Virus record (IMG/VR): IMGVR_UViG_3300036945_000242
Span: 1 to 64,000 of that record
Origin: a virus
Lineage: Duplodnaviria > Heunggongvirae > Uroviricota > Caudoviricetes
Direction: 5' to 3' (one strand)
Length of the DNA stretch: 64,000 bases
In this document: positions 7,244-41,257 of the stretch, one piece after another
How positions within the stretch are numbered: the first letter of the stretch is position 1
How the letters are laid out: every line of letters begins with the position of its first letter
The notes under the pieces: model-generated
The model's input: the letters and a program-made list of their open reading frames with translations, nothing else
What the model was told of the DNA's origin: nothing
The model's database searches: none
Made by a program: the position numbers and the translations under genes

Positions 7244-7250
7244 AAACGCC

Positions 7251-7960: not shown

Positions 7961-8003
7961 ATAATATACCCTTAGATACTTTTCGTCCCCATATAAGAAT
8001 TAT

Positions 8004-8035
8004 ACCCTAAACTTAGTTGTAAGTAAAGGGTATTT
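8004..8035 (-). promoter_or_regulatory. Early promoter cassette, identical copy of 41226-41257
   Basis: Minus strand CCTTTACTTACAACTAAGTTTAGGGTATAAT. The 32-mer is identical at the two loci. Confidence 0.5.
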
Positions 8036-8044
8036 TTAAATTAT

Positions 8045-9112: not shown

Positions 9113-9534
9113 AATTTATTTTTAATATGTGAACCGTGTATTCTACACATGATGTTATTATTATAATAAGCATCACTTTCCAATACTCTATGAGCGAATT
9201 GTTCCCTTGCTTCCACGTAAGAACATTCGGATTTAGACTTACAAAAAAACAAAATCTCTCGAGTAAATTTATCTACACCGAGAGATTCTATATCTTTGGT
9301 TAGTTCTAAGGATGACCCGTAATAGGTCATCCAATCAGAATCAATTTTACTTTTAATCTTTTTCTTTTTCTTAGTTCCGTTTTTCAATGTAACAGTTTTA
9401 ACCGTTGTCTTGGAAAACTTCGCTAATTTCTTACCGATATACTTACGACCGCTAGTCGTATTTTCAATAAGGTAAACGAACCCCACACAATCGTCGGGTA
9501 ATTCGTTTACCTCAGTTCCTTGATAAAACCACAT
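9109..9534 (-). CDS. denA: GIY-YIG endonuclease, EndoII (DenA)-like
   Basis: GFVYLIEN...KYIGKK GIY-YIG core. 141 aa vs 136 aa for T4 EndoII. Adjacent to the nucleotide-metabolism genes as denA is in T4. Confidence 0.5.
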   Translation of the reverse strand: MWFYQGTEVNELPDDCVGFVYLIENTTSGRKYIGKKLAKFSKTTVKTVTLKNGTKKKKKIKSKIDSDWMTYYGSSLELTKDIESLGVDKFTREILFFCKSKSECSYVEAREQFAHRVLESDAYYNNNIMCRIHGSHIKNKL

Positions 9535-9565
9535 TTTAAATTTATAAAGAGTTGATACCCTCTAC

Positions 9566-9721
9566 TTATTCAGGTTTATCTAAGTCCTCTTCTTCCTCGT
9601 AGATATCAGCCGAACAAACGGGGCAGTAAACTATATCTTCAGTAGAAAGGTCATTATCCGATTTTACTGTAATCTTGCCATGAGATTGGCAAGATGAACA
9701 TTCAAAATATTTTGTAGCCAT
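9566..9721 (-). CDS. small Cys4 zinc-ribbon protein (not in ORF track, 51 aa)
   Basis: Hand-translated: MATKYFECSSCQSHGKITVKSDNDLSTEDIVYCPVCSADIYEEEEDLDKPE. Fills the gap between the EndoII-like and RNR genes. Confidence 0.35.
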   Translation of the reverse strand: MATKYFECSSCQSHGKITVKSDNDLSTEDIVYCPVCSADIYEEEEDLDKPE

Positions 9722-9732
9722 CTTGCTTCTCC

Positions 9733-11658
9733 TTATAAGGTTACTTCACAAGCACCGCCTGCGCAAGCTACTTGGTCGTTTAAATTGGTATTGTCTTCTA
9801 ACTCAAGAACTAAGTCTAAGTTAATATCGTGTAAATGGGTAAGCATTGATTCAAATACTTCTTTAGTACAGTCCTCAAACGGGGCTTGTACGTAAGTACC
9901 GTTATCATAAGGAAGTACAGAAATACCCGTATATGAATCACGGTTATCCCACATCCACTCACCCACAGTTTCCCACTCGGTATCTCTTACGGAAATTGTA
10001 CAAGATACGTTATGGTGGTTTGAACCTGAGCGATACCCGTTATGAACCCAATCAATATTAAAACGTTTAACCCTTTCTAATAGGCTTAAGGCTGGCTCGG
10101 TACGTAAAATTGAACCAATAGGAGCAGCTTGAGGGAAACTCATTACCGCTTCTAGATGAGGCTTAAATTTACAATCTTCAATAAGGCTTGGGAAATTGTC
10201 GTTCATATATTTGAAGAGCGGTTCGTTTTTACCGACACGCATTCTACGAATATAATAATCGTTATGCCAAGCATGGATACCTGAAGCTGAACCTACCGTC
10301 AAGGAAGAAGTACCAGAAGGCTTAATACAAGTAGTACGAACCGCTGGGTTGATACCGATTAAGGCTGCAACTCTAGCATTTTCTTCTTTAACAATTTCAG
10401 CAGCTTGAACTAAATCAAACGGTAATACCTTACCTGAACCAATACCCGTTAAACCAACACCAATCAAAGCGTCTTCTTCCGTATTTTCACGCCATTGTGG
10501 ACGTAAATAATGGAAGTTAGTATAACCCGCTTGTAAAGTACCTAAGAACGATGCAGCTTTAACTCTAGCATTTAAATCTTCTTGACTCTTAACGTCATCA
10601 ACGTTGGTTTCAGTCAAGTTACAAAACTGCATATTCTTAAGCGAAATTTCACAACAAGGGTTAGTACCAATATCGTAGTCGTTAGTCCAGAAGAATCCTG
10701 GCTCGCCAGAACCTGAATCTTTCACTCGTTGCCAAATATCTTTGAACTGGTCTTCGCTAACTACACCACGCTTTAATACTACTGAGTTATTGGCACGACC
10801 ACGTTGTGGGTTTAATTCCCACCAAGCACCCGATTTACAACCCAACATATCCATATCTTCAATACTGAATAAGGAGATTAAAGCCGCACGTCTAATACCG
10901 CCCGATAAAACAGCGTCCGCTACGTGACACATGATATCGTGGGCTTCTAGTGAACTCAACTTACGACCTACCGAATTATTCAATACCGCACGAATGTGGT
11001 CAAGACAAATACGCAACGGGTCAGGTCCAGGAGCTTTACCACCGCTGGTAATAAGGCGTGAACCTTTTTGTCGAATATCACGGAAGTCAAACTCAGGGTC
11101 AGATTTACCTTCAAAATAGGCACGTACCAAAATACGAACCGCATCAGCCCAACCCTCAATAGAATCGCCTACTAGGTAACGTCTAGAGCGTTTAATAGGT
11201 CCAACCACTAAAGGAAGCTTATCTACGTGAGGTTTCTGAACTGAAAAACCAACGCCTGAACCGCCTAGTAAAAGGAACATAGCTTCCCAAAAAGCCGCAG
11301 GATTATCTACCGCTACGTAAGCGCAGTTAAACATTCGGTTATTGGCTAACTCAATAGGGCGACCACCGAATTGCATAGAACGCATAGACGGTAATACTTT
11401 TTTAGTCTTAACGAAGTCGGTGTATAATTGTTTAATTTCTTTTTCTAGATGCGGGTATTTTAAAATATGCATACTAGCGTTACGGTCACACAAATCGTCC
11501 CAGTTTTCTCTACGGTTTAATTCTGGGATAAATTTAGCATACTTATTGAATACGGTAATATTAGATAAAATTCTTTGCGATACATCCATTTTTATTTTAG
11601 CTTTCTTGTTTGTTAATGTTGTTGATAATAGGAAATAACTTTGCGATAACCTTAGCAC
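9733..11658 (-). CDS. ribonucleotide reductase catalytic subunit, probably class II (adenosylcobalamin-dependent)
   Basis: Finger-loop motif TNPCCEISL, C-terminal redox Cys pair (ACAGGACE), about 620 aa with no ATP-cone. Likely start M24 near 11589. Confidence 0.65.
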   Translation of the reverse strand: MLRLSQSYFLLSTTLTNKKAKIKMDVSQRILSNITVFNKYAKFIPELNRRENWDDLCDRNASMHILKYPHLEKEIKQLYTDFVKTKKVLPSMRSMQFGGRPIELANNRMFNCAYVAVDNPAAFWEAMFLLLGGSGVGFSVQKPHVDKLPLVVGPIKRSRRYLVGDSIEGWADAVRILVRAYFEGKSDPEFDFRDIRQKGSRLITSGGKAPGPDPLRICLDHIRAVLNNSVGRKLSSLEAHDIMCHVADAVLSGGIRRAALISLFSIEDMDMLGCKSGAWWELNPQRGRANNSVVLKRGVVSEDQFKDIWQRVKDSGSGEPGFFWTNDYDIGTNPCCEISLKNMQFCNLTETNVDDVKSQEDLNARVKAASFLGTLQAGYTNFHYLRPQWRENTEEDALIGVGLTGIGSGKVLPFDLVQAAEIVKEENARVAALIGINPAVRTTCIKPSGTSSLTVGSASGIHAWHNDYYIRRMRVGKNEPLFKYMNDNFPSLIEDCKFKPHLEAVMSFPQAAPIGSILRTEPALSLLERVKRFNIDWVHNGYRSGSNHHNVSCTISVRDTEWETVGEWMWDNRDSYTGISVLPYDNGTYVQAPFEDCTKEVFESMLTHLHDINLDLVLELEDNTNLNDQVACAGGACEVTL

Positions 11659-13331: not shown

Positions 13332-13362
13332 GTAGTTATAACACTTATTATAGCGTAAGGAT

Positions 13363-13380
13363 AGCTGTAAGTAAAGTATT
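13363..13380 (-). promoter_or_regulatory. Early promoter for primase (minus)
   Basis: Minus strand TTTACT-TACAGCTATCCTTACGC-TATAAT upstream of ATGATG. Confidence 0.5.
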
Positions 13381-16228: not shown

Positions 16229-17326
16229 TTATTCGAATAATTGACCAGCTAACGCTAAGGCTACATTTTCTTCAATATACTCAGCGTCTTCGTCGGATAT
16301 ATATACTTCTCCGTCGATATAGGTAGCGATAACATCATCGCTAAATTCTTCAGACAAATATAATTCTTCTTGTTCGTCTACGCAAACAAAAACTGCTTGT
16401 CCACTTTCAATACTTTCCTGAATAGCTTGTTCGGCTAAAGATTGTAAGCTTTCTAAAATAAAGTAAGCTCTGCTTTCCGCTTCTTCATTAACCTTCTTTT
16501 CCATACGGTCTTCAGCTTTTTCTAGACCTCTTATTCTATTAGTAATCTTATCGGCAGTTTTTACGCTAACCTTACGAGTACGAGCTACGTCGCCTAATTT
16601 TTTATTTAAATCGACTTTAGCCTTACTTGAATAAGATTTAAGCGTATCATAGTTTAACTCATTAATGATTGCGCTTTTGTCTAATTGGAGACCGTCTTCC
16701 AACACCATTTCTCCGTCTACGTACGCTGCTATTGTATCTTCGTTGTATTCTTCGGAGATGTATATATTTTCATCATCATCCACACACAGGAAAAAAGCTA
16801 GGTCTTCAACCAAGCTTAACTCTGCAGCGTATTCTGCTAATTGTTTTAAATCCGTCATTTCTAATCCTTCGTTTTGTGATTTTGTTTTATCGCCCATATA
16901 TGCAGCGATCGCCATCTCAGCCCTCTTTTTACTAGATTTACCTTTAAATTGAGGGGCTGTAGATTTTTTGAAGTCTTTAACGTATTCGCCCGCCCCCATA
17001 GATGGGTCTAAGGTTTCGTCCATACGCTTTTTCTCTTGTCTTTGCGCTTTTCGTACAGCTGCTCGTTGCTTAGATATAACCGCTTTAGCGGTAGGACTCT
17101 TCTTTACAACAGGCATTTTATACAGATAGGGCGATCCAGGATCGCCTAAGTCCACCGTGGGTTTAACGCCTTGAAGCAGATTATTAGCGAACGTAATTCG
17201 GTTTGGGCGAATACGTCTAGTTCTAGTTTTTCCCGTAACCTTATCTACCCATTTTCTTATAGAAAATTCGGCGGCATATACGTCTTCTTTTATATTACTC
17301 ATTTTGTTAAAGCGGTAAGCATCCAT
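16229..17326 (-). CDS. acidic protein with internally duplicated domain
   Basis: Two copies of a motif like FFLCVDDDENIYISEEYNEDTIAAYVDGE / VFVCVDEQEELYLSEEFSDDVIATYIDGE. Confidence 0.35.
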   Translation of the reverse strand: MDAYRFNKMSNIKEDVYAAEFSIRKWVDKVTGKTRTRRIRPNRITFANNLLQGVKPTVDLGDPGSPYLYKMPVVKKSPTAKAVISKQRAAVRKAQRQEKKRMDETLDPSMGAGEYVKDFKKSTAPQFKGKSSKKRAEMAIAAYMGDKTKSQNEGLEMTDLKQLAEYAAELSLVEDLAFFLCVDDDENIYISEEYNEDTIAAYVDGEMVLEDGLQLDKSAIINELNYDTLKSYSSKAKVDLNKKLGDVARTRKVSVKTADKITNRIRGLEKAEDRMEKKVNEEAESRAYFILESLQSLAEQAIQESIESGQAVFVCVDEQEELYLSEEFSDDVIATYIDGEVYISDEDAEYIEENVALALAGQLFE

Positions 17327-17736
17327 CTATGTTTATTATGAACGTCTAATCTACTCGCAGCAAAATCCGCTAACCCTTGTTTATTTTGGGCGGTAGCGGT
17401 AGTAAATAATTTATTTAACGATTGTATTAGAGTATCATTATCGGCAATAAGAGTATTTATCATCAACAAAGAACTCATCTTTTCATCGCCACATTGCTCA
17501 ATAGTAGCTAGGTCTAAGATAGTTTGTAGGCTAGATGGAGCGAATTCGTCTATCGCTCTAATTTCCTCAGCTATAACGTCAACCGCATCGTGTACTTCTT
17601 CGTATAAATCGCCGAAGAATCCGTGAAGCTGAATAAAGTCTATACCAGTAACATTCCAATGGAAAGAGTGAGTCTTGTAGTAAAACGCAAACATATCCGC
17701 TAGAACAATTTTAGCCGTGATTTTTAATTCATCCAT
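17299..17736 (-). CDS. Dps-like ferritin (DNA protection during starvation family)
   Basis: 145 aa. Ferroxidase-site pattern YKTHSFHWNVTG...FIQLHGFFGDLYEEVHDAVDVIAEEI typical of Dps. Confidence 0.55.
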   Translation of the reverse strand: MDELKITAKIVLADMFAFYYKTHSFHWNVTGIDFIQLHGFFGDLYEEVHDAVDVIAEEIRAIDEFAPSSLQTILDLATIEQCGDEKMSSLLMINTLIADNDTLIQSLNKLFTTATAQNKQGLADFAASRLDVHNKHRWMLTALTK

Positions 17737-19194: not shown

Positions 19195-19696
19195 ATTCCC
19201 TCATCTTAGTACCCGATACGCCTGAAGTATCATCAGCGTCCGGATCCCTATCGCCAGCTGAGTGTACGGTAATTTTATTGAAGTTATAGCTACCGTGTTT
19301 CCCTGGAACTCCGTTATATTTATGTAACAACTCACTCATAGTCCCCACCCTATCTGACCCCGCTATAACGTGGAGGTGGGTTATCCCGCTATCCGACATA
19401 TCCGAAGCGTGGTGTAAGATGGTGGGACTCGCCTTAGAGGAAGCTTTGATGTTAGTTCCTGGAAATGCCGCTTTAGCGAACTTAACTTTATCCTCGGGGG
19501 ATAAGGGGTTTTTCTTAGCGTCGTGGGAATGAGATAAAACCACTACGTGATCAGCGTTGTGTTTAGCTGCCACCTCGTGTACTTTATCTATTACTTTTTC
19601 GTGTCCAGCGGTGGGCGGGTTCATACGCCCATAAACTAAAACCCCGTGAGTATCGGGCTTGGCCGATTCGATTAGGTATTGAAAGAACGATTTCAT
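19079..19696 (-). CDS. nucleotidyltransferase, NMN/NaMN adenylyltransferase-like (cytidylyltransferase fold)
   Basis: H/TxGH motif YGRMNPPTAGH and C-terminal SGTKMRE (ISSTxIR-like). 205 aa. Confidence 0.5.
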   Translation of the reverse strand: MKSFFQYLIESAKPDTHGVLVYGRMNPPTAGHEKVIDKVHEVAAKHNADHVVVLSHSHDAKKNPLSPEDKVKFAKAAFPGTNIKASSKASPTILHHASDMSDSGITHLHVIAGSDRVGTMSELLHKYNGVPGKHGSYNFNKITVHSAGDRDPDADDTSGVSGTKMREYAASGDKENFHANLPSKMPERHRTALFHTLRKSMGHEE

Positions 19697-20886
19697 TATT
19701 TTCCGAACCTTAACATATTAGAACGAGCAAACTCGGCTCGGTTTACTAGCTTGGTAGGCTTACCTTCGTGATGAACTACAAAGCCCTCTGGTTTTGATTT
19801 AGTACCGTTAATGCTATGGTCTAGACCGCCTTCGTGTTGTTCTAGCGTAGATACTAAAACGTTCTTAGCTTTTTGTAAGTGGTCGTGCATCTTTAGTAAA
19901 TTATTATAGTGCTCTTTATTATTTTCGATATGGTGGATATCGTCGTGTAACGCTTGAGACTTAGCGTTTTTACTCTTTTCTGTCTTAACCTTAGCTATTT
20001 CTTTTTCGGCTTTTGCTGCGATATGACCTTGTAACCCTTTGTGAGTAGGGGTTTCGCCTGTTCTTACGGTGTGGTTAATGTAGGCTTTTAACGCTCCACC
20101 CTCGCCATGGTGCTTCTCGGTAGCGTCGTACATCTTATCACCGTGTTTAGCGTGAATTGATTTAGCGGCGTCTAAGTGACCTTTAAACTCTTTACTAGCC
20201 GCAGGCGTTAAGGCTACTTTACTGGTATCGTGCTCGGCGGTTTTATGGAATACGTCTTTGTGTTTACCGAAACCGCTAGTATCTGGATGTGGACTAGCTT
20301 TCATATCCGTAATATCGTTACCGTGATATTGGGTATGGGTTACTAAGCCTAATTTAGCGTGTTTAACCGCTTCGGCTTCTTTTCCTTTAGCGGTGTAGGT
20401 AATTGTGTTTGGCGTAAAGGAAGCGTTACCGTTATCGTGGTGGTGGACGTCGCCGTGAGTAAACATAACGTCGCCCTGATATACCCCGTGTTTAGGAGCT
20501 ACCTTGGGTAAGTGGTGGAGGGCGGATTTAAGCTTTTCTACCAATCCAGGAGCGTGTCCGTGGTTAGCTTCAATATCTTCGTTAGAGTAGTTTATTTTCG
20601 GAGTCTTGTTGAAAGCCGATTTAGTTGCTACGAAGAACTTATTATTCTCGGGGTGGTGGCCATACACTAAGCTAGGCGACCCGTCATACTTCATTGAAAG
20701 GTCAGTGCTATGCGCACCTGCTTTAACGTGGTCGTGAGCTTTTTGTAGAACGCCAAAAGCGTGAACCGCCCCTTTATACCCCGAGTTTAACGGGTGGTCT
20801 TCAGCGTGTTCAATATGTTTTAGCTTATCGTCGCTGGAGGCTTCCGCAGCCTCCATAAGCATTTTAAATTCTTTAAAATTAAGCAT
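19696..20886 (-). CDS. His-rich RNA ligase-like nucleotidyltransferase (Rnl1-type motifs)
   Basis: Motif I MKYDGSPSLV (T4 Rnl1 has TKEDGSLVS). Motif IV/V EGFVVHHEGKPTKL (T4 has EGYVAV...HFKIK). About 12% His. Confidence 0.45.
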   Translation of the reverse strand: MLNFKEFKMLMEAAEASSDDKLKHIEHAEDHPLNSGYKGAVHAFGVLQKAHDHVKAGAHSTDLSMKYDGSPSLVYGHHPENNKFFVATKSAFNKTPKINYSNEDIEANHGHAPGLVEKLKSALHHLPKVAPKHGVYQGDVMFTHGDVHHHDNGNASFTPNTITYTAKGKEAEAVKHAKLGLVTHTQYHGNDITDMKASPHPDTSGFGKHKDVFHKTAEHDTSKVALTPAASKEFKGHLDAAKSIHAKHGDKMYDATEKHHGEGGALKAYINHTVRTGETPTHKGLQGHIAAKAEKEIAKVKTEKSKNAKSQALHDDIHHIENNKEHYNNLLKMHDHLQKAKNVLVSTLEQHEGGLDHSINGTKSKPEGFVVHHEGKPTKLVNRAEFARSNMLRFGK

Positions 20887-22423
20887 TTACGTTTTCTCTG
20901 ATTAGGGTTGTTATATATCTAACTTGCTCAGTCGTTAAGCGTCTATTTCGAGTTTGCTCTAGATTGAGTGAAGATTGGTTAGCGGTAGGTATAGGGGTTA
21001 CTGGATTGGCTACCTTCTTTTTAGCTCTAGTCTTTTTCGGAGCATTAGGATCCTTCTTAGCTCTAGGCTTTTTCGGAGCGTCAGGATCCTTCTTAGCTCT
21101 AGGCGTTTTAATTTTAATCTCTTTACCAGAAGATACCATAGAAGACTGCGGGTCGCTTTGTGAGCTAAACTTCATATCTTGTCTAGCGATTTCGCGATGG
21201 GTATCATTTCCGTCCTTATCCTTTTCCTTTTTAGAGAAAACTACGCTACCACCTCTAGCCTCAATGTGTAATTTTTCTGGTTCTGACGTATGGTTTTCGT
21301 AATGTTTTTCCACATCTGTTATAAGGTGGTGTTTTATATTATCGCCTGAACCGTATGTTACGTGTCTATAATGTTCGTGTGTATCAGTAGATCCTGGATA
21401 TATGGGTTGATTATGCATAGGCGGATTTTTAGCACTTAACAAATGAACCAATTTAGCTTGTCTTTCTTCGTGCGTCGAATCCTCTCTATTTAAATGGTCG
21501 GCGAGGTCTTTAGCGGTCTTATGTAAAACGGTAGTATTTTTACGTTTAATGTCCGCTTTGACTTCTTCGGGTTGAGCCTTAAGCCAATCTTTTCTCTTTT
21601 CAGCCCCATGAACCTTAACTTTTCCCTTAGAGTTAGTGTAGGTCGTAGGCATCGTAGGATGAGCGTCTACAACGGATTTTCTATGAGCGATTAAATTCCC
21701 TTTAGCGTTTGGACCAGAATGTTCTATCCCAGGATTAGCTAATGGCACTTCGGGGCTATTTTTATCAGTCTTCTTTAAACTAATACCAGTAAATTTTGTA
21801 TGCTTTTTCTCATCATCTTTATGGTGAGAATGTACTACGATATCCGATGGGTCTTCATTTTGAGATGAATTGAATTTACCGCCAGTAGCACGTCCGATAT
21901 CTCCAGACTTTGAAGTCCAAACAACGTGCTTAATTACATGACCTTTGCCGTCAAAATGTTGCTTAATATCTGAGGCTGCAGATTTAGCTCTAGCCGCAGT
22001 TCTTGCGTACTCTCCAGGATGATTTTTTTCTAAGGTATCTTTAAGCTTATCGTGAGCTTCTTCGGGAGAATCACCTTCTATGTTAGGATGTTTTTCCATG
22101 TGTTTACCGCCATTAAGGTGGTAACCGACTAGAAGCTCGTGTAACTTTCCAGTTAAATCGGCTTTAGAAACCTTTTTCTTTTTCTCTTCTTCGGATTCTT
22201 CTTCTGGTTCTTCATCCGGATCTTCTTTAGATTCGTAGACGTACTTTGCTACGAGGATTTCCTCGCCATCTTCGTTCTCATCTACAATCCAATTAGTTAT
22301 ATTGTCTTGTTCTTGTTGTTCTCTCATAAGAGAGTCGATATATATACGCTCTTCTTGTTTACCGCTTAGGTACTGACTAAAGTTAATCATCATTTCCCCT
22401 ATATTCTTGTTTAACAGTTCCAC
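20879..22423 (-). CDS. His-rich protein with acidic tract and C-terminal basic tandem repeats
   Basis: 514 aa. Repeats PRAKKDP[DN]APKK near the C-terminus. No catalytic motif recognised. Confidence 0.35.
   Translation of the reverse strand: MELLNKNIGEMMINFSQYLSGKQEERIYIDSLMREQQEQDNITNWIVDENEDGEEILVAKYVYESKEDPDEEPEEESEEEKKKKVSKADLTGKLHELLVGYHLNGGKHMEKHPNIEGDSPEEAHDKLKDTLEKNHPGEYARTAARAKSAASDIKQHFDGKGHVIKHVVWTSKSGDIGRATGGKFNSSQNEDPSDIVVHSHHKDDEKKHTKFTGISLKKTDKNSPEVPLANPGIEHSGPNAKGNLIAHRKSVVDAHPTMPTTYTNSKGKVKVHGAEKRKDWLKAQPEEVKADIKRKNTTVLHKTAKDLADHLNREDSTHEERQAKLVHLLSAKNPPMHNQPIYPGSTDTHEHYRHVTYGSGDNIKHHLITDVEKHYENHTSEPEKLHIEARGGSVVFSKKEKDKDGNDTHREIARQDMKFSSQSDPQSSMVSSGKEIKIKTPRAKKDPDAPKKPRAKKDPNAPKKTRAKKKVANPVTPIPTANQSSLNLEQTRNRRLTTEQVRYITTLIRENVNA
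21000..21112. repeat. About 42-bp tandem repeat (2.5 copies) inside the CDS, encoding PRAKKDPxAPKK
   Basis: ggatccttcttagctctaggctttttcggagc repeated in tandem. Coding, not CRISPR. Confidence 0.6.
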
Positions 22424-22850: not shown

Positions 22851-22884
22851 TTATTATAACCTATAAAACTTTGCAAGTAAATAG
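22851..22884 (-). promoter_or_regulatory. Early promoter cassette (ttattataacc family)
   Basis: Minus strand TTTACT-TGCAAAGTTTTATAGGT-TATAAT. Flanked by direct repeats ataaaa(a)cccgcc at about 22833-22846 and 22895-22906. Confidence 0.45.
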
Positions 22885-22898
22885 TTTTAGACGAAATA

Positions 22899-22918
22899 AA
22901 ACCCGCCGAAGCGGGTTG
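22899..22918. terminator. Hairpin terminator (AACCCGC-ttcg-GCGGGTT) with T-rich flanks on both strands
   Basis: 7-bp GC-rich stem with UUCG tetraloop on minus, followed by TTTATTT. Ends the operon 22923-28008. Confidence 0.55.
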
Positions 22919-22922: not shown

Positions 22923-23465
22923 TTAAATACCTAGATTAGAATTTATATATTGTAAAATGGTAGCTTGGTGTTCTAACGTACAATTATCAAACTCTTGGGT
23001 AAACGCCATATATTCAAAGTTAGAAAGAATATTAGATATTTTAGTATCCCTACCCTTTAAGAACGTTTCCGATTGGTTAGATCCTCTATCTATATACCGC
23101 TGTTTTAAAACGGATTGCGGAGCCTTTAACGCTACGATATTAAATTCGCAATTTGGTAAGGAATACAGGTGGTCGTAGAATTTACCGTTAGTTAGGCGGT
23201 CACCTTCAAAGATAACATTAGAAGTAGTTTCCCGCATAAACTTTTCAGCATTAGGTTGCACACTCATACCCAACCTATCAGTACCCGCAAAAACCTCACC
23301 CTCCTCATACTTACCCAAAACGTATAAGTCTAACGCTTCGCAGTACATAGCGTGAATCATAGGCTCGGGTTCAACCGATTGCCAAGTTTTACCCTCCATA
23401 AATTTACGGAATAACGTAGTTTTACCAGTACCTGGAACGCCACAAACAGCAATAATTTTTCTCAT
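22923..23465 (-). CDS. P-loop kinase (Pnk-kinase/AAA_33-like); candidate DNA or nucleotide kinase
   Basis: Walker A AVCGVPGTGKTT (T4 Pnk has TIGCPGSGKST). Walker B VIFEGD. 180 aa. Last gene of the operon. Confidence 0.5.
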   Translation of the reverse strand: MRKIIAVCGVPGTGKTTLFRKFMEGKTWQSVEPEPMIHAMYCEALDLYVLGKYEEGEVFAGTDRLGMSVQPNAEKFMRETTSNVIFEGDRLTNGKFYDHLYSLPNCEFNIVALKAPQSVLKQRYIDRGSNQSETFLKGRDTKISNILSNFEYMAFTQEFDNCTLEHQATILQYINSNLGI

Positions 23466-24481
23466 GTAAACATCTCCAATCCTATTAGTTGTGCTTCCTC
23501 GTCGCTAAACATCCACTCTAACTTTTCAAATTTACCTGTTGCTAGAAATAGCGGATACTTTTCTTTCATAATTCCACGCTTTACGTCTAAGCGGTTATTG
23601 ATACTTTCGTTTCTAGCTTGCCATAAAACTTCCCAATCAATACCATACCAACCGTCTTGCCCGCAACGCTGAATTTCTTCCGCTTGTCGGTCTAGGTAAT
23701 ACCCTAGATAACGACCGTTGGTCGTTCGGAATAGTTTCTTATACGAACATAGACAAGTTTCCATAGTAAAGTAATCAATCTGACTAGCCAACTCAGGGAA
23801 TCGGCTACGCATTTCAATAAGAATATCCTCACCAAACGATTCAAGATTATTATATTCTTGTACGCTTAACTTCTTATCATAATCCTCATCCCTACCCGAA
23901 GCTAATAATAAGCCGTTACGATGCGAACGAGAACCGTCATAATCGCTTAACATTAAAGAACTAGGCTCAACGTCAATACCAGCGGTGTGCTTTAAGTGTT
24001 GCATATAAAACCATGTAGAGTACCTACCAAACTTGTGTAAATTAGTTTTAAGGGCTACCCATAAAGAATCAAAGTTCTCCTTAGAATCTCCTACGTAGAA
24101 CTGCTCAAGCCGTTCACGTTGAGAACTTTGACCGATAAACTTTTGATACGATTCAAACATTGACGGTAAATGACCTTTGTTCCACTTGGTATCGGTTTGG
24201 TATCGGAGTCGCTTATAATTTTCCGTATTCCACTTCTCGATTCTATCTACCGTTGCTAACTCAAAATCTGGGAACTCGTTCATAAGAACCCAAGAAGTTG
24301 GTAAATAGTACGTATTACCGTAAAACCACGCTAACCAAAGTCTTTGCTCGTCGTTGTGTTCGTAACGGGTATTCAAATAATTAGTCGCCCATACCGCTGG
24401 GTCGCAGTCGTTAAATTTCAACGACCACGCATACCAACGAATAAATCCTTCTCTACGATTTTCTTTTAAACGATAATCCAT
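23462..24481 (-). CDS. W/Y-rich all-helical protein; candidate base-modifying transferase (aGPT-Pplase-like?)
   Basis: 339 aa, no catalytic motif recognised. ATGA-coupled to the kinase. Confidence 0.3.
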   Translation of the reverse strand: MDYRLKENRREGFIRWYAWSLKFNDCDPAVWATNYLNTRYEHNDEQRLWLAWFYGNTYYLPTSWVLMNEFPDFELATVDRIEKWNTENYKRLRYQTDTKWNKGHLPSMFESYQKFIGQSSQRERLEQFYVGDSKENFDSLWVALKTNLHKFGRYSTWFYMQHLKHTAGIDVEPSSLMLSDYDGSRSHRNGLLLASGRDEDYDKKLSVQEYNNLESFGEDILIEMRSRFPELASQIDYFTMETCLCSYKKLFRTTNGRYLGYYLDRQAEEIQRCGQDGWYGIDWEVLWQARNESINNRLDVKRGIMKEKYPLFLATGKFEKLEWMFSDEEAQLIGLEMFT

Positions 24482-24484
24482 ATA

Positions 24485-25033
24485 TTAAAATTGTGTTAGC
24501 GAAGCTATCTTATTTACGCTAGCGGTATCAAAGATTTCAACACACCCACCCTTTCCCTTTTTATTAACTGCATTATAGATAACCGAATCAGTATAATCGT
24601 ATTCGCACTCAGAGAACGAATCACTGGTTATACGGAAAATGCTTAACTGGCAACCCGATTTTTGTTTACCCCAAAACTTGAATCCTATTTTCTCATAGAA
24701 ACCAACCGCAGATGGTTCAGACGATACTCGAAAGAAAGAAACGCCACGATTTTTCATATCGCTTAGCGAATTTTCACATAGAACTCTAGCCGCACCCTTA
24801 CCCCTGTGATTAGCGAAAGTATGTAAAAGTTGTAAGTTAGCTACATGAGGCTTTCGTTTAGATACGGTAGTGATGATGGCTGCCATCAATTGCGTACCCT
24901 CAAAAACGCCCCAACACTCGTCCCACTGCTTTTGCATATCCGCCTTAGCGACAAACGTTTTAGCAAACTTATCAGCGGGGTCGGTACTAATAGCAGAGAT
25001 AAATTCTTCTCTGGAACATTTACACAACTTCAA
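24485..25033 (-). CDS. GNAT family N-acetyltransferase
   Basis: GNAT motif A HRGKGAARVL and FYEKIGFKF. Confidence 0.55.
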   Translation of the reverse strand: MKLCKCSREEFISAISTDPADKFAKTFVAKADMQKQWDECWGVFEGTQLMAAIITTVSKRKPHVANLQLLHTFANHRGKGAARVLCENSLSDMKNRGVSFFRVSSEPSAVGFYEKIGFKFWGKQKSGCQLSIFRITSDSFSECEYDYTDSVIYNAVNKKGKGGCVEIFDTASVNKIASLTQF

Positions 25034-25898
25034 CGAACGTTCTCACTTTCTTACCACGGCTATCGTCGTGTTTGGTATTATTCCAGCCAATAAATTGAGC
25101 TAAGTCCCACTGCATTGGAGGGAACTTATAACCGTTAGCCGAAATAAGCTCATTAACGTCTGGACCATCGTTTAACGCTGCGTAGAGGAAATCTTGAACA
25201 AAGCGGAAACACGACTCAAGCTCTTCCCTATCAAGAGTACCACGGAAAAGGCGGAACTCAATTGTATCAATATGCTTAAGAGCGTACATATTTATAGCGT
25301 AGCGGAATGGGCGACCCATAGATACACCGTCCTTACCTGCAGCGTGCATTTTGATAAAAGAATCAAAATCGGTAGCTAGGTTCAAAATATTATCGCTCAT
25401 ATAATCGGGCATAGCTCGACCGCCATCAAACTTCAAATACATCTTGGAACCCTTAGCCCCTTTCATTTGATTGTGTTCAAAGAAACCATAAACACGGTCA
25501 ATAGTATCGGCTTGATTCTTCTTAATATAAGCGGTTAGACGCTTCAAAGCGTCAATATCATCCCGTAGTCCTGGAACTCGACAATGAATATGGGTATGAG
25601 CTGTAACACCAACCGTTGGCGAATGACCCGCATCGGTGAATAATTTTCGCAGCTCAAAGTAGCGATCTACCTGCTCCGCCCAAGTTTTAGTTGGCTTAGT
25701 GTTTATCTCTCCGCCGAAAGGAGGGTCTATACCTAGAGGGTCAGCGCATACGTTTTTATGTGGGTCTCGGAGGTTGATAATATCTCGTTCCGAATATTCC
25801 CAAGCACCCAGATTAACTGGGATTTCAAACGAGCGGGGAATATCGCCCCACTCAATTTCCATACCGTATGTAAATTTATCAGACGGATATTGTTTCAT
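25020..25898 (-). CDS. GCS2/glutamine-synthetase-like amidoligase (Amidoligase_2-type)
   Basis: N-terminal YGMEIEW and IEFRLFRGTLD (E.R motif) typical of carboxylate-amine ligases. Overlaps the GATase gene end. Confidence 0.5.
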   Translation of the reverse strand: MKQYPSDKFTYGMEIEWGDIPRSFEIPVNLGAWEYSERDIINLRDPHKNVCADPLGIDPPFGGEINTKPTKTWAEQVDRYFELRKLFTDAGHSPTVGVTAHTHIHCRVPGLRDDIDALKRLTAYIKKNQADTIDRVYGFFEHNQMKGAKGSKMYLKFDGGRAMPDYMSDNILNLATDFDSFIKMHAAGKDGVSMGRPFRYAINMYALKHIDTIEFRLFRGTLDREELESCFRFVQDFLYAALNDGPDVNELISANGYKFPPMQWDLAQFIGWNNTKHDDSRGKKVRTFVEVV

Positions 25899-26598
25899 AT
25901 TTTACCTTTTGTAAGTCTTTAGCCTCAATACTTATTCGTTCAACAGTAACCGTTAGATTCTTGTCGATTTTGTGATAAGCGTTCATATCAACTTCAACAG
26001 TTTCGCCCTTTAGGTTAGCTCTGCGTGGAATATCCCTAGTAGAAGTAATTATACTACCATTTTCAATGGAAGTAAAGTATAAAGGGCGTTTACCGTTACG
26101 ATAATACGTTATAGATTTAGTATCTTTACCCAATTCACATACCGCCATTGAAGCGTCTTGAAACTCTTCCAAAGGCGATAACGAATGTAATACTAATTCG
26201 CTATCGTTCCTAGTGGCGCACGTATAACCGTAATTACTTTCCCATTGGCTAGGATCCTCTTGAGTAATAACCCCGTTATGGGCGATTGAAGTTGTTTCGT
26301 TTGAAATAGGCTGATTATACAATAGGTCAGAAGTAGAATATCTACAATGACCTATTAAATACAAGTTACCGTCAGCGTTCACTAAATCCGATAATTTATC
26401 ATCCGTTAAATGGATATCGACAAATTTATCTGCTGATATAGAATCCGAGATAGTAACAATATCAGCCGACCACCATGGTAGAAAGGAAATACCCGTAGCG
26501 TGTTTACCCCTAATCATAGACTCGGTAAACACTTTTCGTAGGAGAGCTAAGTCTCCTACGGTCGGATTCAATATAATGCTTCCAACGATTGCGCACAT
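25879..26598 (-). CDS. stand-alone class-II (Ntn) glutamine amidotransferase domain protein
   Basis: Protein starts MCAIVGS (Cys2 nucleophile as in MCGIVG of PurF/GlmS/AsnB). 239 aa, no synthetase domain. Its ATG abuts the TAA of the upstream gene. Confidence 0.6.
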   Translation of the reverse strand: MCAIVGSIILNPTVGDLALLRKVFTESMIRGKHATGISFLPWWSADIVTISDSISADKFVDIHLTDDKLSDLVNADGNLYLIGHCRYSTSDLLYNQPISNETTSIAHNGVITQEDPSQWESNYGYTCATRNDSELVLHSLSPLEEFQDASMAVCELGKDTKSITYYRNGKRPLYFTSIENGSIITSTRDIPRRANLKGETVEVDMNAYHKIDKNLTVTVERISIEAKDLQKVKYETISV

Positions 26599-28008
26599 TT
26601 AGAAAAAATCCTCTAAGCTAGATTGTTTAACAGACTCGGGATGGTTTTTAAGCATCTCTTCATAACCAATTTTACTGGCGCAATAATCGTACCAAGCTTG
26701 CTCAGTCCACATTCCAGGAGAAATACCGTTCCAACGTAAACGCTGTAAAGGGTGTGATTTATCTAATCGGCGACTCTCCACATACTCAAACCTAGCGTTC
26801 TCATACTCATAAGAACCCAAGTTCAACATACCCTCACGTAAATAACAAACTAACGAAATACGCTCAGCTTGCTCATCGTGTAAAGTAATTTCGGTATTAC
26901 CGTGAAGAACTTCGTGGTTATTGATTAACAGTAAATCTCCAGGACGTACATTAACCGCAATTCTATATTCTGGGGCTACTAAGTAACCGCCTGTATAGTT
27001 ACCGTTATTAGATAATACTAATAGGTTAGATAAGCCCTGAGTATAATCGCCAGCGTCATAATGAGCAGCAGTTCTAAAGGTTCTATTAACAGTAAGCGTA
27101 GTGAATGGCGTTCCAGGAACTCTAAATCTATGATCAATAGTTTCAGCAGCACGCATTTGGTTACCATAACGCCATGGTAATAGGTCTTTAAAACCAGTAG
27201 CCAAGGTTTGTAAAAACGGGTAAGCCCTAGCAAATAACTCAGGATTATCCCGTGTATAGTTAGTAGTTCTACCGTAAGGAATACGTGGATAACGGTCAAA
27301 CCAACCAGCAATACCCGAATATACACCAATACCATAAGTCGTAGTGCTCATAATGGTAGAGATTCTATCCGCAGAGTCAGCCCTAGCCTCACGACTTAAC
27401 GGTTTAATACTATCGACCCATGAGTCAAAATCAAAGCCGTTAGTAAAGCCATGCTCAGGGAAACGGTCAATAACCCATACAAAGTTCTTACCACCACCAC
27501 CCGCTAACTTACGATCTTCTTGAGTAGGGTACTTAGAACGAACCGTGTCAATAACGTCCTCAACTTCAAGAGCTGCTAATCGGGCTGACTTTAACTCGGA
27601 TAACATATCGTATTGGTAGTTAGTAACCCAAATACGAGTATCGTCCGTAACCGTAACGCCCTCTTTAATACCTGAAGCTAAACCTCGATTTTCGGTTCGG
27701 GTAGCAGCTTGACGTAAACCAATATACGCTTCGTCTTGAATTTCTTTAGGGAAAAAGTTCTTACGGAATTTAAAGGCGATTTTTAATTCGTTAGTACCCA
27801 TATGACAAGAAGAACAATCTCTAGGCGTATCGCAGGTACTTTGAGTTACTACGTCGCAGTCAGGAGGCATATACACATCACAATCTTCGTTAATAAGCGT
27901 ATCATAGTGTGATTCGTTTAAGAACATACCAATTAAGTGTTCACAATCGTGTTTAGTATCTGCTACAATAACTCTAACGTTTCTATCTTTTTCTTTAATA
28001 ATCGCCAT
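26599..28008 (-). CDS. 2OG-Fe(II) dioxygenase (HxD...H) with N-terminal Cys/His cluster; TET/JBP-like candidate
   Basis: Cys cluster HDCEH...CDVYMPPDCDVV..CDTPRDCSSCH. Facial triad AHYDAGD about 50 aa before HEVLHG, then RISLVCYLR. Confidence 0.5.
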   Translation of the reverse strand: MAIIKEKDRNVRVIVADTKHDCEHLIGMFLNESHYDTLINEDCDVYMPPDCDVVTQSTCDTPRDCSSCHMGTNELKIAFKFRKNFFPKEIQDEAYIGLRQAATRTENRGLASGIKEGVTVTDDTRIWVTNYQYDMLSELKSARLAALEVEDVIDTVRSKYPTQEDRKLAGGGGKNFVWVIDRFPEHGFTNGFDFDSWVDSIKPLSREARADSADRISTIMSTTTYGIGVYSGIAGWFDRYPRIPYGRTTNYTRDNPELFARAYPFLQTLATGFKDLLPWRYGNQMRAAETIDHRFRVPGTPFTTLTVNRTFRTAAHYDAGDYTQGLSNLLVLSNNGNYTGGYLVAPEYRIAVNVRPGDLLLINNHEVLHGNTEITLHDEQAERISLVCYLREGMLNLGSYEYENARFEYVESRRLDKSHPLQRLRWNGISPGMWTEQAWYDYCASKIGYEEMLKNHPESVKQSSLEDFF

Positions 28009-28023: not shown

Positions 28024-29427
28024 CTAAAATTTAAAATCACTAAATCCGCCTGCGGAACGTTCGCCACCAATATCTGTTTTACTAAAAGCAGCTGGGTCAG
28101 CTTCCCACGGGGCAGTGTTACCTACTCCGGATAAATCGTCTTGAGCCGAATCTTCAACATCATATAAGGTCATCTTCGAGCGGTCAATACCAATAATAAA
28201 ACGCTTATAATTATCCACACTAGCGTAGCGATTCTTTAGCTGTTTTACCATAATCTGACCCATACTTTCTAATTGTTCATTAGAAACTAAAGCAAACATA
28301 AAGTCAGCCGTAGCGGGTAAGCCAAAAGATTCTGAAGTATCTTCTAATCCAGGATCCGAATTAGTAAAACCGCTTCTAGTGGTTTGGGTAGCTGAAATAA
28401 TAGGAACATTATACTCTACCGCTAAACCCCTAAGTTCCTCAGCAATCGCTTTAATGTAAGTATAAGAATTTACGCCACCACTCATTTTAACCCTTTGACT
28501 TGAACAAATATTCAAGTAGTCAATCATAACAATATCGGGCGTAAAATTACGCTTAACCTTTAACTCTTCCAGTAACGCCCTAAAGTGACCCGCATGAGCC
28601 GAAGAAGTCGGATACTCTTTAACAATCAATTTACCATTAGTCTTTTCCGTTACCTTTTTAATACGAGATAAGAAAACCTCTTTACTCATAGAGCCTAACT
28701 TATCCATACTAATATTTAGAATGTTAGCGTCAATACGTTCTGCGATACGCTCTTCAGCCATCTCCATGGTAATATATAGAACGTTTCTACCCTCAATCAA
28801 ATTACCCGCAGCTACGTGACACATGAATAAGGATTTACCAACACCAGTACCCGCTAAAGCAATATTTAGAGTCTTTTTAGGTAAACCGCCTTTAGTAATT
28901 TTATTAAAGAAATCTAAGTTAAATCCGATACGCTCCTCGACTCGATTGTAATAATCGTATCGAGTTTCCGCATCCTCAAAGTAATCATGACCAACGTGAT
29001 TATCGAAAGTAATAGATAACGCTTGAGTAAGAATACTGGGAATTGCGTCCTGTGTATTCTTACTATCCTTTCCTTCAATAATCTTAATAGAATTTAAAAT
29101 AGCGTTATACACCGCACGGTCTTTACAGAACTTTTCAGTTTTCTCTAATAACCACTCGGTGTTACTTTCGGTAACAGTTAGAGATTTTGAATAATCACTA
29201 AACTCAGAAACCTCTTTATCAGAGATTCCTGGATAGTTAGATATTTCAATCTCAAGAATATCGTGAGAAATAGGCTTGTTATAAGTATCGAAAAACTTAG
29301 ATATGATAGAAGATATAACCGATTCTTTACGGTCGGTGAAATAGCTCTTATCAATATAAGGTACTACCTTGCGGCAGTAGTCCTCATTCTGAATCAGATT
29401 CGATAATATCAAGCTTTCTATTCTCAT
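28024..29427 (-). CDS. 41: replicative DNA helicase gp41 (DnaB-like)
   Basis: Walker A NIALAGTGVGKS, RecA-like C-domain, 467 aa (T4 475 aa). Synteny with gp61, gp40 and uvsX. Confidence 0.8.
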   Translation of the reverse strand: MRIESLILSNLIQNEDYCRKVVPYIDKSYFTDRKESVISSIISKFFDTYNKPISHDILEIEISNYPGISDKEVSEFSDYSKSLTVTESNTEWLLEKTEKFCKDRAVYNAILNSIKIIEGKDSKNTQDAIPSILTQALSITFDNHVGHDYFEDAETRYDYYNRVEERIGFNLDFFNKITKGGLPKKTLNIALAGTGVGKSLFMCHVAAGNLIEGRNVLYITMEMAEERIAERIDANILNISMDKLGSMSKEVFLSRIKKVTEKTNGKLIVKEYPTSSAHAGHFRALLEELKVKRNFTPDIVMIDYLNICSSQRVKMSGGVNSYTYIKAIAEELRGLAVEYNVPIISATQTTRSGFTNSDPGLEDTSESFGLPATADFMFALVSNEQLESMGQIMVKQLKNRYASVDNYKRFIIGIDRSKMTLYDVEDSAQDDLSGVGNTAPWEADPAAFSKTDIGGERSAGGFSDFKF

Positions 29428-31339: not shown

Positions 31340-31376
31340 ATAGGTATATTATACTATAAAAAGGGTTGTAAGTAAA
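31340..31376 (-). promoter_or_regulatory. Early promoter (ttgtaagtaaag family)
   Basis: Minus TTTACT-TACAACCCTTTTTATAG-TATAAT then GGAGG SD. Confidence 0.5.
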
Positions 31377-31379: not shown

Positions 31380-31916
31380 TTATTTATGCGGTACGTCAAA
31401 TACGAAAGTAATTCTAACCACATCGCCCGTGTTTTTAGTACCGTGCGGTAACTTGTTATTAAACCAAAGTAAATCGCCCGCTTTAACGCTAACCGTCTCG
31501 TCTCCAACGGTATAGTCGTATTCGCCTTGGATAGCTAGGTGATACCTATCCCTAGTTTGGTAATAATTACCAATGTCAATATGCGTACCAACCTCACCGC
31601 CAACGGGTAGCGATAAGAACCCGCAACGGGAGTAGGTTTTAAAGTGGCGTTTCATAAAGCGAATAACTTCGGTATGGCGTTCTACTGCGGACGTTGGAAT
31701 ACAAATATCCGTATCGCCCACGTATTGATCCATACTTGTTACGCCACCCATAACCAACTGCAGCACCCCCGCTTTTACCTCGGGGAAGCCGTAGCTTAGC
31801 ATAGATTTAGCCCCATCCGCCCTAGTTTGAACGCCCCAATCTTCGGGGTTATCTTCTAGTTGTTTAAGAATCTTAGAGACGTTAATCCCCCGCTTAATCA
31901 ATTTAATATTATCCAA
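31380..31916 (-). CDS. cupin-type 2OG-Fe(II) oxygenase (Asp/Asn beta-hydroxylase-like)
   Basis: GTHIDIG (HxD) and LPHGTKN (distal His). 178 aa. Confidence 0.4.
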   Translation of the reverse strand: MDNIKLIKRGINVSKILKQLEDNPEDWGVQTRADGAKSMLSYGFPEVKAGVLQLVMGGVTSMDQYVGDTDICIPTSAVERHTEVIRFMKRHFKTYSRCGFLSLPVGGEVGTHIDIGNYYQTRDRYHLAIQGEYDYTVGDETVSVKAGDLLWFNNKLPHGTKNTGDVVRITFVFDVPHK

Positions 31917-35804: not shown

Positions 35805-35841
35805 TATATTATACCCTAAAGCGAGTTGTAAGTAAAGCTAT
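35805..35841 (-). promoter_or_regulatory. Early promoter (ttgtaagtaaag family)
   Basis: Minus TTTACT-TACAACTCGCTTTAGGG-TATAAT. Confidence 0.5.
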
Positions 35842-41179: not shown

Positions 41180-41225
41180 AGTTAGTTTAACAAAATTTAA
41201 GAGTTATCACTCTATACAGGTATTA

Positions 41226-41257
41226 TACCCTAAACTTAGTTGTAAGTAAAGGGTATA
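41226..41257 (-). promoter_or_regulatory. Early promoter cassette, identical copy of 8004-8035
   Basis: Minus CCTTTACTTACAACTAAGTTTAGGGTATAAT. Confidence 0.5.

Follow-up and report, generated by a model that had tools for sequence, protein, structure and literature searches.

A predicted TET-initiated thymidine hypermodification cluster with a stand-alone glutamine amidotransferase and an amidoligase in an uncultured T4-like phage

Here, we describe a six-gene operon from an uncultured T4-like myovirus that, judged from its sequence, is very probably a thymidine hypermodification cluster initiated by a TET-type dioxygenase and acting on the phage's own DNA. The operon lies within a stretch of 64,000 nucleotides (nt), here called the window, which corresponds to positions 1 to 64,000 of IMG/VR virus record IMGVR_UViG_3300036945_000242 and to which all coordinates refer unless another contig is named. 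The same phage was seen in SRR11805346 and in JGI sample 3300043137, and the major capsid protein it encodes shares 67% identity with the one of Methylophilales phage Melnitz and 62% with the one of Pelagibacter phage HTVC008M. Directly upstream of the operon is the gene for the gp41-type replicative helicase (28024-29427, minus strand; the identical gene in locus L151 has a DnaB_C Pfam match). The six genes follow on the minus strand and encode a TET/JBP-family Fe(II)/2-oxoglutarate (2OG) dioxygenase (26599-28008; 469 amino acids, aa), a stand-alone class II (N-terminal nucleophile, Ntn) glutamine amidotransferase, or GATase (25879-26598; 239 aa), an Amidoligase_2-like amidoligase with the glutamine synthetase (GS)/GCS2/PafA fold (25020-25898; 292 aa), a GNAT N-acetyltransferase (24485-25033; 182 aa, TTG start), an amino-acid:DNA transferase, or AADT, formerly aGPT-Pplase clade 2 (23462-24481; 339 aa), and a P-loop kinase predicted to be a 5-hydroxymethyluracil DNA kinase (22923-23465; 180 aa).

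These open reading frames (ORFs) overlap or abut. The gp41 stop codon TAG is followed by 15 nt, acaaagaggtattat, with the Shine-Dalgarno-like element agagg, and then by the dioxygenase ATG at 28008. The dioxygenase and GATase genes abut as TAA-ATG (26601-26596), the GATase and amidoligase genes overlap by 20 nt (25879-25898) and the amidoligase and GNAT genes by 14 nt (25020-25033), a gap of 3 nt separates the GNAT and AADT genes, and the AADT and kinase genes meet in ATGA (23465-23462). A strong intrinsic terminator on the minus strand (22900-22917; AACCCGC-TTCG-GCGGGTT, then TTATTT) begins 5 nt past the end of the kinase gene and consists of a stem of seven pairs, five of them G-C, with a T run after it. 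An earlier note on this DNA, made without database searches, had proposed a six-gene minus-strand operon between gp41 and a hairpin terminator, and its coordinates, overlaps and 15-nt spacing were all confirmed. The arrangement is not due to chance, because the same block stands after gp41 in dozens of independent IMG/VR contigs. Short plus-strand ORFs in the region (50-82 aa) were rejected as genes because they overlap the conserved minus-strand genes.

The six genes are part of what appears to be a longer transcription unit. Allowing at most one mismatch, we counted 20 copies of the motif TTTACT-N17-TATAAT in the window, where 2.1 would be expected and none of 100 shuffled sequences reached 20; it is probably the early promoter consensus of this phage. 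Such sites are mostly on the minus strand, for example at 5596-5624, 7999-8027, 13347-13375, 22853-22881 and 31348-31376, with further sites at 35808-35836, 41222-41250, 43452-43480 and 47923-47951; the exact matches with the extended TTTACTTACAA element are in intergenic gaps. The minus-strand site at 31348-31376 (TTTACTTACAAC-N11-TATAAT) would be the probable start of the unit. No strong terminator was found between it and 22917, and the next site on the same strand (22853-22881; TTTACTTGCAA-N-TATAAT) marks the operon boundary and would serve the downstream unit of DUF6321, 514-aa protein and DUF6267 genes. An internal promoter-like site at 26048-26076, within the GATase gene, does not conform to the extended consensus TTTACTTACAAC and was rejected. 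Together with the terminator, the promoter-like sites at 31348-31376 and 22853-22881 suggest a single unit comprising an 89-aa ORF, thioredoxin, uvsX, a 116-aa ORF, gp41 and the six genes, so that the pathway would be co-expressed with replication and recombination genes.

The dioxygenase matches Pfam Tet_JBP (PF12851) with E 9.1e-28 and 97 bits against a cut-off of 34.9. The iron triad H315-x-D317 and H364/H368 and the 2OG-binding R382 are invariant in this protein and its homologues (48 sequences). An AlphaFold2 model of medium confidence (predicted local distance difference test, pLDDT, 78) has a TET-like double-stranded beta-helix, and its best Foldseek matches are human TET2, CcTet, NgTET1 and CMD1 (E 2.5e-9 to 4e-7, probability 1.00). 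About 240 residues of the 469-aa protein precede the Pfam domain. The N-terminal cysteine cluster pointed out in the earlier note is real (C51, C59, C65 and C68); it lies within an insertion that several homologues lack and is thus not a conserved catalytic feature.

Oxidation of thymine to 5-hydroxymethyluracil (5hmU) is the established activity of phage TET/JBP enzymes from clades C1 and C2 (PMC13229309), and the dioxygenase is predicted to carry out this reaction on thymine in DNA. Thymine is the expected target because no cytosine C5-methyltransferase was found among the 39 window ORFs scanned against Pfam or beside the gene block in those related loci whose neighbors were examined; the same scan of the window gave no thymidylate synthase or dUMP hydroxymethylase. 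Were cytosine the target instead, a methyltransferase encoded elsewhere would make 5-methylcytosine, the dioxygenase would convert it to 5-hydroxymethylcytosine, and the kinase and AADT would act on that base. Phage TETs of clades A and B do act on 5-methylcytosine, P-loop kinases have been proposed for 5-hydroxymethylcytosine in some contigs (PMC8256090), and 64 kb of this genome have been seen. Besides the missing methyltransferase, however, this scenario conflicts with the TET-ParB combination in 14 related loci, a hallmark of the neighborhood of the T-dioxygenase clade C1 (PMC13229309), with the characterized AADTs and 5-hydroxymethyluracil DNA kinases (5-HMUDKs), all of which act on 5hmU, and with the presence of the same AADT clade beside thymidylate-synthase-like genes in locus L153. 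We therefore regard a cytosine target as very improbable. In the window itself, no ORF of the 39 has a Pfam match to ParB, and the ParB-like homologue of a sister locus finds nothing better than E 3.7 by tblastn against the 64 kb; a role of the cysteine-bearing insertion as a ParB substitute gained no support, as no correlation was seen across loci.

Two further window genes touch on iron chemistry. One encodes a ferritin/Dps-like protein (17299-17736, minus strand; E 4e-20), and the other, beside the DNA polymerase gene, a small cupin or Asp-Arg-hydroxylase-like second 2OG oxygenase (31380-31916, minus strand; E 4e-8). That a phage with a DNA dioxygenase dependent on Fe(II) also encodes an iron-handling protein may not be coincidental.

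The product of the kinase gene has the Walker A motif GVPGTGKT and matches Ploopntkinase3 (PF18751; E 1.7e-8, 34.6 bits against a cut-off of 27), as well as AAA_18 and AAA_33. It was correctly recognized as a P-loop kinase from the outset, but instead of being specifically related to T4 Pnk it belongs to a family that was defined for these systems. With the verified 5-HMUDK gp49 of phage PaMx11 it shares 30% identity over 61 aa. It has no match to PF18748 (HMUDK_HMUD1) at E <= 0.1, and gp49 itself matches this model weakly (E 0.002). In all complete loci the kinase gene accompanies the AADT gene.

What the earlier note had called a W-rich helical protein is in fact the AADT, so that the aGPT-Pplase component to be expected in such a pathway is present. 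The protein matches PF18724 (ADDT) with E 3e-19 and 70.1 bits against a cut-off of 26.2, the same model that PaMx11 gp46 matches with E 1.6e-27. Its segment ME240-T241-CL-C244 aligns with VETILC of gp46, which holds the catalytic E243, T244 and C247; in the crystal structure of gp46 the former two are metal ligands and C247 is the cysteine that attacks C6 (PMC11472151). E240 and C244 are invariant and T241 nearly so in the homologues of the window protein. AADTs displace phosphate with an amine via a Cys-C6 adduct (PMC8989533, PMC11472151), and the sequence of 5-HMUDK and AADT chemistry, together with GNAT acetylation of 5-aminomethyl-deoxyuridine (5-NmdU), has been reconstituted for phages PaMx11 and M6 (PMC8989533).

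The GATase matches Pfam GATase_6 (E 4.7e-8, 33.6 bits against a cut-off of 27), and its best partial NCBIfam matches are PurF (E 1e-6, far below the PurF cut-off) and AsnB. It carries the motifs MC(A/G)(I/V)(I/V)G (MCAIVG in the window), HCRYSTSD, HNG and ND-E. Invariant in 26 homologues are the cysteine after the initiator methionine, R29/G30, HCRYSTSD (83-90), H106-N107-G108 and N130-D131-x-E133. These include R85 in HCRYSTSD, N107-G108 and D131, which we take, by analogy with GlmS and PurF, to be the glutamine-binding and oxyanion residues. The protein thus shows every hallmark of an active class II glutaminase and is predicted to be an ammonia donor. A family search of 1.84 billion representative proteins yielded 525 representative clusters, nearly all of them stand-alone proteins of 200-260 aa, with two fusions as exceptions. 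In the public calls for this gene on two contigs (L151, 2382-3020; L152, 195-833) the GATase begins 27 codons late (212 instead of 239 aa) and loses the catalytic Met-Cys; the longer ORF that abuts the TET stop codon (TAAATG) is the conserved form.

For the amidoligase, the Pfam match to Amidoligase_2 (E 0.017, 15.5 bits) is below the cut-off of 22, and a homologue in locus L018 (33% identical) reaches 26.1 bits, above it. The motifs GxExEWG, GGEIN, HxHxH and TxEFR are kept in the homologues, with E13/E15, E63/N65, H102/H104 and E213/R215 as conserved residues. The sub-threshold call was settled by these invariant acidic, histidine and arginine active-site residues together with an AlphaFold2 model built from 44 homologues (pLDDT 91), whose nearest folds are GS, glutamate-cysteine ligase (GCL), PafA and GmaS, all of which activate the gamma-carboxylate of glutamate. 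The GNAT call is supported by matches to Acetyltransf_10 (E 5.5e-12, 46.2 bits against 23.6) and Acetyltransf_1 (E 1.1e-7, 32.5 bits against 20.7) and by the acetyl-CoA-binding motif A, R-G-K-G-A-A, at residues 76-81. GNAT homologues begin at the position of the window's TTG start, but with ATG (MKLHKC). Similarity to the 5-NmdU acetyltransferase gp48 of PaMx11 is weak (24% over 58 aa, pairwise E 5e-6). The five enzyme families named in the earlier note (dioxygenase, GATase, amidoligase, GNAT and P-loop kinase) thus hold, and its proposal of a DNA base hypermodification operon is supported.

In IMG/VR, loci that encode the dioxygenase number at least 65 and those that encode the AADT at least 504; we examined 147 loci. 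Our census of gene content covers 74 non-redundant TET-to-kinase regions, 73 of which carry this AADT clade. The island stands after gp41 wherever the upstream flank is present on T4-like contigs. Its most frequent form (42 of 74) is TET-GATase-GNAT2-(REase-like)-AADT-(130-aa ORF)-kinase, with no ATP-dependent ligase. The window type, TET-GATase-amidoligase-GNAT-AADT-kinase, accounts for 25 of 74, and in all 25 non-redundant loci with the window-type amidoligase the GNAT is present as well; 14 of the 25 additionally encode a ParB-like protein between GNAT and AADT (PHROG E 1.8e-5; profile match to Noc/ParB N-terminal domains E 2.9e-5). Five regions read TET-GATase-(glycosyltransferase)-amidoligase2-low-molecular-weight (LMW) phosphatase-AADT-kinase, one is a bare TET-GATase-AADT-kinase, and one combines a TET gene with a 374-aa ORF (no Pfam match), a divergent AADT and a kinase, without a GATase. 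Sister loci have, at the same site, an orthologous TET followed by a glycosyltransferase only (PF20691, E 4.8e-19, in L032; GT1 in L009). The restriction endonuclease (REase)-like label of a 242-aa ORF in some GNAT2 cassettes is provisional, as this ORF has no Pfam or PHROG match; the conserved 130-aa ORF often found between the AADT and kinase genes of relatives is absent from the window.

The bare arrangement belongs to L004 (IMGVR_UViG_3300012667_000084), the closest relative of the window. UvsX is 96% identical between the two, and the amidoligase-GNAT pair is absent from L004. TET, kinase and gp41 are 87%, 82% and 87% identical, compared with 67% for the GATase and 59% for the AADT. That the latter two have diverged far more than their flanks suggests a recombination event in which everything from GATase to AADT was replaced together. 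The gp41-adjacent island is a hypervariable swap site for tailoring cassettes. No cultured phage was found to have the block: a megablast search with the 5.3-kb region as query gave no match among 50,697 phage records, and isolates yielded distant TET homologues only (39-46% identical; Stenotrophomonas phage DLP6, Caulobacter phage Cr30 and phage C48C1), among which Cr30 alone has an AADT near the TET homologue.

Content of the island bears directly on which enzyme the GATase serves. A GATase is present in 73 of 73 non-redundant loci with this AADT clade and an amidoligase in 30 of 73; the remaining 43 retain the GATase and have no amidoligase or other ATP-dependent ligase that could activate a carboxylate. 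The idea, put forward in the earlier note, that the GATase feeds the amidoligase is therefore doubtful, since the former is universal with the AADT clade and the latter optional. The AADT is also the most conserved island protein, with 77% mean identity between cluster types as opposed to 62-63% for GATase and TET, which points to one common AADT substrate whatever tailoring follows. Pairwise-distance correlations controlled for gp41 were 0.40 for GATase-AADT, 0.29 for GATase-kinase and 0.02 for GATase-TET, and about zero for TET with any partner, values for which there is no valid significance test. In addition, protein P0306 (588 aa; L153, 250-2016; ENA ERZ27248471, k133_17121) is an in-frame GATase-AADT fusion with no methionine at the junction, whose halves are 38% and 40% identical to the window GATase and AADT. 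On this unrelated contig the fusion gene is followed by a PF18748 5-hydroxymethyl-deoxyuridine DNA kinase (E 1.9e-24) and a thymidylate-synthase-like gene, and no amidoligase or GNAT was detectable there. We put the odds that the GATase serves the AADT step at even or slightly better.

Taken as a whole, the locus is best explained, with a probability of roughly 0.55, by a post-replicative thymidine pathway in which glutamine-derived ammonia enters at the AADT step. Tool results cover family membership, catalytic motifs, operon structure, co-inheritance and gene fusions, and from these we infer every catalytic step. Briefly, the TET/JBP dioxygenase would convert thymine in DNA to 5-hydroxymethyl-deoxyuridine, and the P-loop kinase (Ploopntkinase3) would phosphorylate the hydroxymethyl group to give 5-phosphomethyl-deoxyuridine (5-PmdU). 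Cys244 of the AADT would then attack C6, phosphate would be expelled, and a nitrogen nucleophile would join the C5 methylene. We propose that this nucleophile is ammonia, which the stand-alone class II GATase would release from glutamine; the chemistry would resemble that of PurF, in which pyrophosphate is displaced by ammonia. The product, 5-NmdU, would be the common core intermediate of all GATase-containing variants, and the variable cassettes would all supply enzymes that acylate amines, be it GNAT2 by itself, an amidoligase with a GNAT, or amidoligase2. The GS-fold amidoligase of the window type would form an ATP-dependent amide bond between the amine and a carboxylic or amino acid, possibly through the gamma-carboxyl of glutamate if family precedent is followed, and the GNAT would acetylate whichever amine is still free. 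The end product would be an N-acyl(acetyl-aminoacyl)-5-aminomethyl-deoxyuridine whose likely role is protection from host nucleases. We consider the exact roles given here to amidoligase and GNAT doubtful. The general logic of the earlier note, by which a base is oxidized, phosphorylated, given an amine and then acylated or amidated, fits this scheme.

Several points weigh against this pathway. To our knowledge, no AADT has been shown to use ammonia. Protein P0289 (L154, 418-1989; ENA ERZ23499410) is a fusion of a GATase with an Amidoligase_2 domain (33.7 bits), followed by a GNAT gene, the GATase and amidoligase genes overlap in the window, and Amidoligase_2 and GAT-II genes are neighbors in the unrelated tf/LUZ24 phage cassette; together these make a direct coupling of GATase to amidoligase plausible. 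Each of the two fusions is a single sequence on a single contig, and P0289 keeps the amidoligase's own methionine at its junction and could be a read-through of overlapping genes. The related loci share ancestry, so that their counts are not independent events and the correlation carries no valid p-value. Comparison of the gp46 pocket residues W146, K150 and D24 with the window AADT is limited by a hidden Markov model alignment that is reliable in the ETxxC segment alone. The window represents 64 kb of a genome of probably 140-190 kb, the size range of related phages, and a C5-methyltransferase, ParB or dUMP hydroxymethylase may sit elsewhere. ParB-less clade C1 dioxygenases were previously inactive in Escherichia coli (PMC13229309), and the window is likewise without a ParB homologue.

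The evidence for coupling of GATase and amidoligase would be accommodated by a different order of events, that of the earlier note, in which the AADT adds a free amino acid, e.g., glycine, serine or glutamate, to 5-PmdU, the amidoligase activates its carboxylate with ATP and, much like asparagine or glutamine synthetase, uses GATase-derived ammonia to turn it into a carboxamide, and the GNAT acetylates an amine. Characterized clade 2 AADTs use amino acids or polyamines (PMC8989533), the GS fold suits amidation of a gamma-carboxylate, and the 20-nt gene overlap, P0289 with its downstream GNAT and the adjacency of Amidoligase_2 and GAT-II in phage tf would all be expected. This order of events leaves the 43 of 73 loci with a GATase and no ATP-dependent ligase unaccounted for, as a glutaminase alone cannot amidate a carboxylate, and the AADT is nearly identical between these ligase-less loci and the window type. 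The GATase-AADT fusion next to a 5-hydroxymethyl-deoxyuridine kinase, on a contig with no amidoligase, and the hint of read-through at the P0289 junction further reduce its appeal. We consider it unlikely, while giving it appreciable weight.

Stand-alone class II GATase-like proteins such as EgtC can be gamma-glutamyl amidohydrolases. This allows for a cycle in which a GS/GCL-fold ligase gamma-glutamylates an amine of the modified base, as transient protection, and the GATase-like Ntn hydrolase later removes the glutamyl group, with a logic that resembles EgtA/EgtC or PuuA/PuuD. All four nearest folds of the amidoligase activate the glutamate gamma-carboxylate, as this cycle would require, and phage tf pairs Amidoligase_2 and GAT-II with a gamma-glutamyl cyclotransferase. 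We nonetheless judge such a cycle quite improbable, given that most loci with a GATase have no amidoligase, that the GATase family retains, without variation, every residue with which true glutaminases bind glutamine, and that the GATase-AADT fusion would be left unexplained.

It is also conceivable that TET, AADT and kinase alone modify the DNA and that GATase, amidoligase and GNAT act as a trio on a small molecule or peptide tag, as proposed for amidoligase cassettes of the LUZ24/phiEco32 type. The intimate placement of the trio between the TET and AADT genes, overlaps included, is difficult to reconcile with such a separate function, as are the strict co-inheritance of the GATase with the AADT (73 of 73), their fusion in P0306 and the recurrence of AML2-like ligases in other thymidine hypermodification clusters, such as that of phage Simon (L150). 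Cassettes of Amidoligase_2, GAT-II, ATP-grasp and gamma-glutamyl cyclotransferase genes do occur in phages without AADT or TET, and apart from the PaMx11 GNAT no member of the three families has been shown to act on DNA. Overall, we find this division of labor highly unlikely.

The cluster of phage Simon (PQ683277.1, sewage, unannotated; 6968-11531) is apparently an SP10-like thymidine hypermodification cluster. It contains an AML2-like amidoligase, an LMW phosphatase (LMWPc), HMUDK_hel (aGPT-Pplase1-type), Nmad5, a ThyA-like gene and an HD phosphohydrolase, and no match to a GATase was found in it. An amidoligase thus appears to work without a GATase elsewhere, a point in favor of the AADT as the enzyme that the GATase serves. 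For the window phage, the ammonia-based thymidine pathway probably yields a new base. That this base is an undescribed N-acylated, probably aminoacylated and acetylated 5-NmdU, made by GATase-to-AADT amination and by a GS-fold amidoligase acting on a DNA base, is a possibility that we place somewhat below even odds.

Systems of this kind were first predicted by Iyer et al. 2009 and Iyer et al. 2013. Contrary to the statement in the earlier note that the combination is not a described pathway, two papers already report such clusters (PMC8989533, PMC13229309). Lee et al. 2021 (PMC8989533) described metavirome contigs with 5-HMUDK, aGPT-Pplase2 and Tet_JBP plus amidoligase and glutaminotransferase domains, whose function they left open. 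Compared by description, these contigs (their Fig. 2, sequences 22-25) have the same set of Pfam families as the window, and the authors likewise infer in situ oxidation of thymine to 5hmU followed by hypermodification. O'Toole et al. 2026 (PMC13229309) found ParB-associated clade C1 T-dioxygenases "consistently linked" with GATases, P-loop kinases and AADTs, and some clade C1 members without ParB. The "ParB-dependent subclass" of that clade resembles the window in its TET/JBP enzyme, its lack of a C5-methyltransferase and its linked GATase, P-loop kinase and AADT; it differs in ParB, of which a like gene lies inside the same operon in 14 related loci and none in the window's 64 kb, and, going by the published description, in its enzymes, whose last conserved cysteine is at residue 280, compared with a dioxygenase of 469 aa here. 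Our literature search found no paper that assigns a function to the GATase or the amidoligase in such clusters.

Of the characterized pathways, that of PaMx11 gp46-gp49 to 5-acetylaminomethyl-deoxyuridine (PMC8989533) shares with the window adjacent genes for a base kinase, a PF18724 AADT (E-T-x-x-C) and a GNAT, and under the proposed model a 5-NmdU intermediate and N-acylation would be common to both. The proteins are only 20-30% identical. PaMx11 makes 5hmU before replication with a thymidylate-synthase-like enzyme, whereas the window uses a TET/JBP dioxygenase; PaMx11 arrives at 5-NmdU via glycine and the flavin adenine dinucleotide (FAD)-dependent gp47, whereas the window has a class II GATase and no FAD enzyme. 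The window further differs in its extra GS-fold amidoligase and in a kinase of PF18751 instead of the gp49 type. The likeness to PurF, in which ammonia from a class II Ntn GATase displaces (pyro)phosphate from an activated carbon, is a mechanistic analogy only: the window GATase has no phosphoribosyltransferase domain, its acceptor would be a DNA base and its partner a separate AADT, and it is not a member of the PurF family. The Amidoligase_2/GAT-II/ATP-grasp/gamma-glutamyl cyclotransferase cassette of phages tf, LUZ24 and PaP3 also has adjacent Amidoligase_2 and GATase in the early region, but there the GATase, 25-26% identical to that of the window, is the N-terminal domain of a 531-aa protein, and TET, AADT and base kinase are lacking. 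Base J-type pathways combine JBP/TET with a glycosyltransferase, as do the sister loci, unlike the window, which has no glycosyltransferase and follows the kinase/AADT route. The window is therefore an example of a recognized kind of system leading from TET/JBP via kinase to AADT; what is new is the recognition of the island as a swap site and a hypothesis, open to testing, on what GATase and amidoligase do.

Further genes in the window are of interest in their own right. Downstream of the operon, the DUF6267 gene (19696-20886, minus strand; 396 aa, E 1e-98) is kept in many related loci, and the MKYDGSP segment of its product resembles the KxDG motif I of covalent nucleotidyltransferases (DNA and RNA ligases). 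The neighboring 514-aa protein (20879-22423, minus strand) belongs to no Pfam family, is acidic near its N-terminus, has a C-terminal tandem Lys/Pro-rich repeat, PRAKKDPDAPKKPRAKKDPNAPKKTRAKKK, and may bind DNA or be an internal component of the virion. Homing endonucleases of the SegE-like GIY-YIG type are encoded twice (370-1011 and 9109-9534, both minus strand; E 1.3e-32 for the latter), the second directly downstream of a ribonucleotide reductase-like gene (9733-11658) with weak Pfam matches to the B12-dependent class.

By hypermodifying thymidine, phages shield their DNA from restriction and CRISPR nucleases, and these modifications are a source of new enzymes that act on DNA. The lineage described here is abundant: IMG/VR contains over 500 relatives of the AADT, and dioxygenase and amidoligase clusters number over 2500 and over 900, respectively. 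Among its members, each tailoring module is naturally "knocked out" in some phages while the genomic position stays the same; phage Simon is a possible cultured-sequence entry point to the amidoligase step. Should the GATase indeed supply the AADT, 5-NmdU would be reached in one step and without an amino acid, and Ntn amidotransferases would have a new use. If the proposed pathway as a whole is true, it would comprise two activities never demonstrated on DNA, and the gp41-adjacent island would be a hot spot at which T4-like phages of aquatic bacteria diversify this base.

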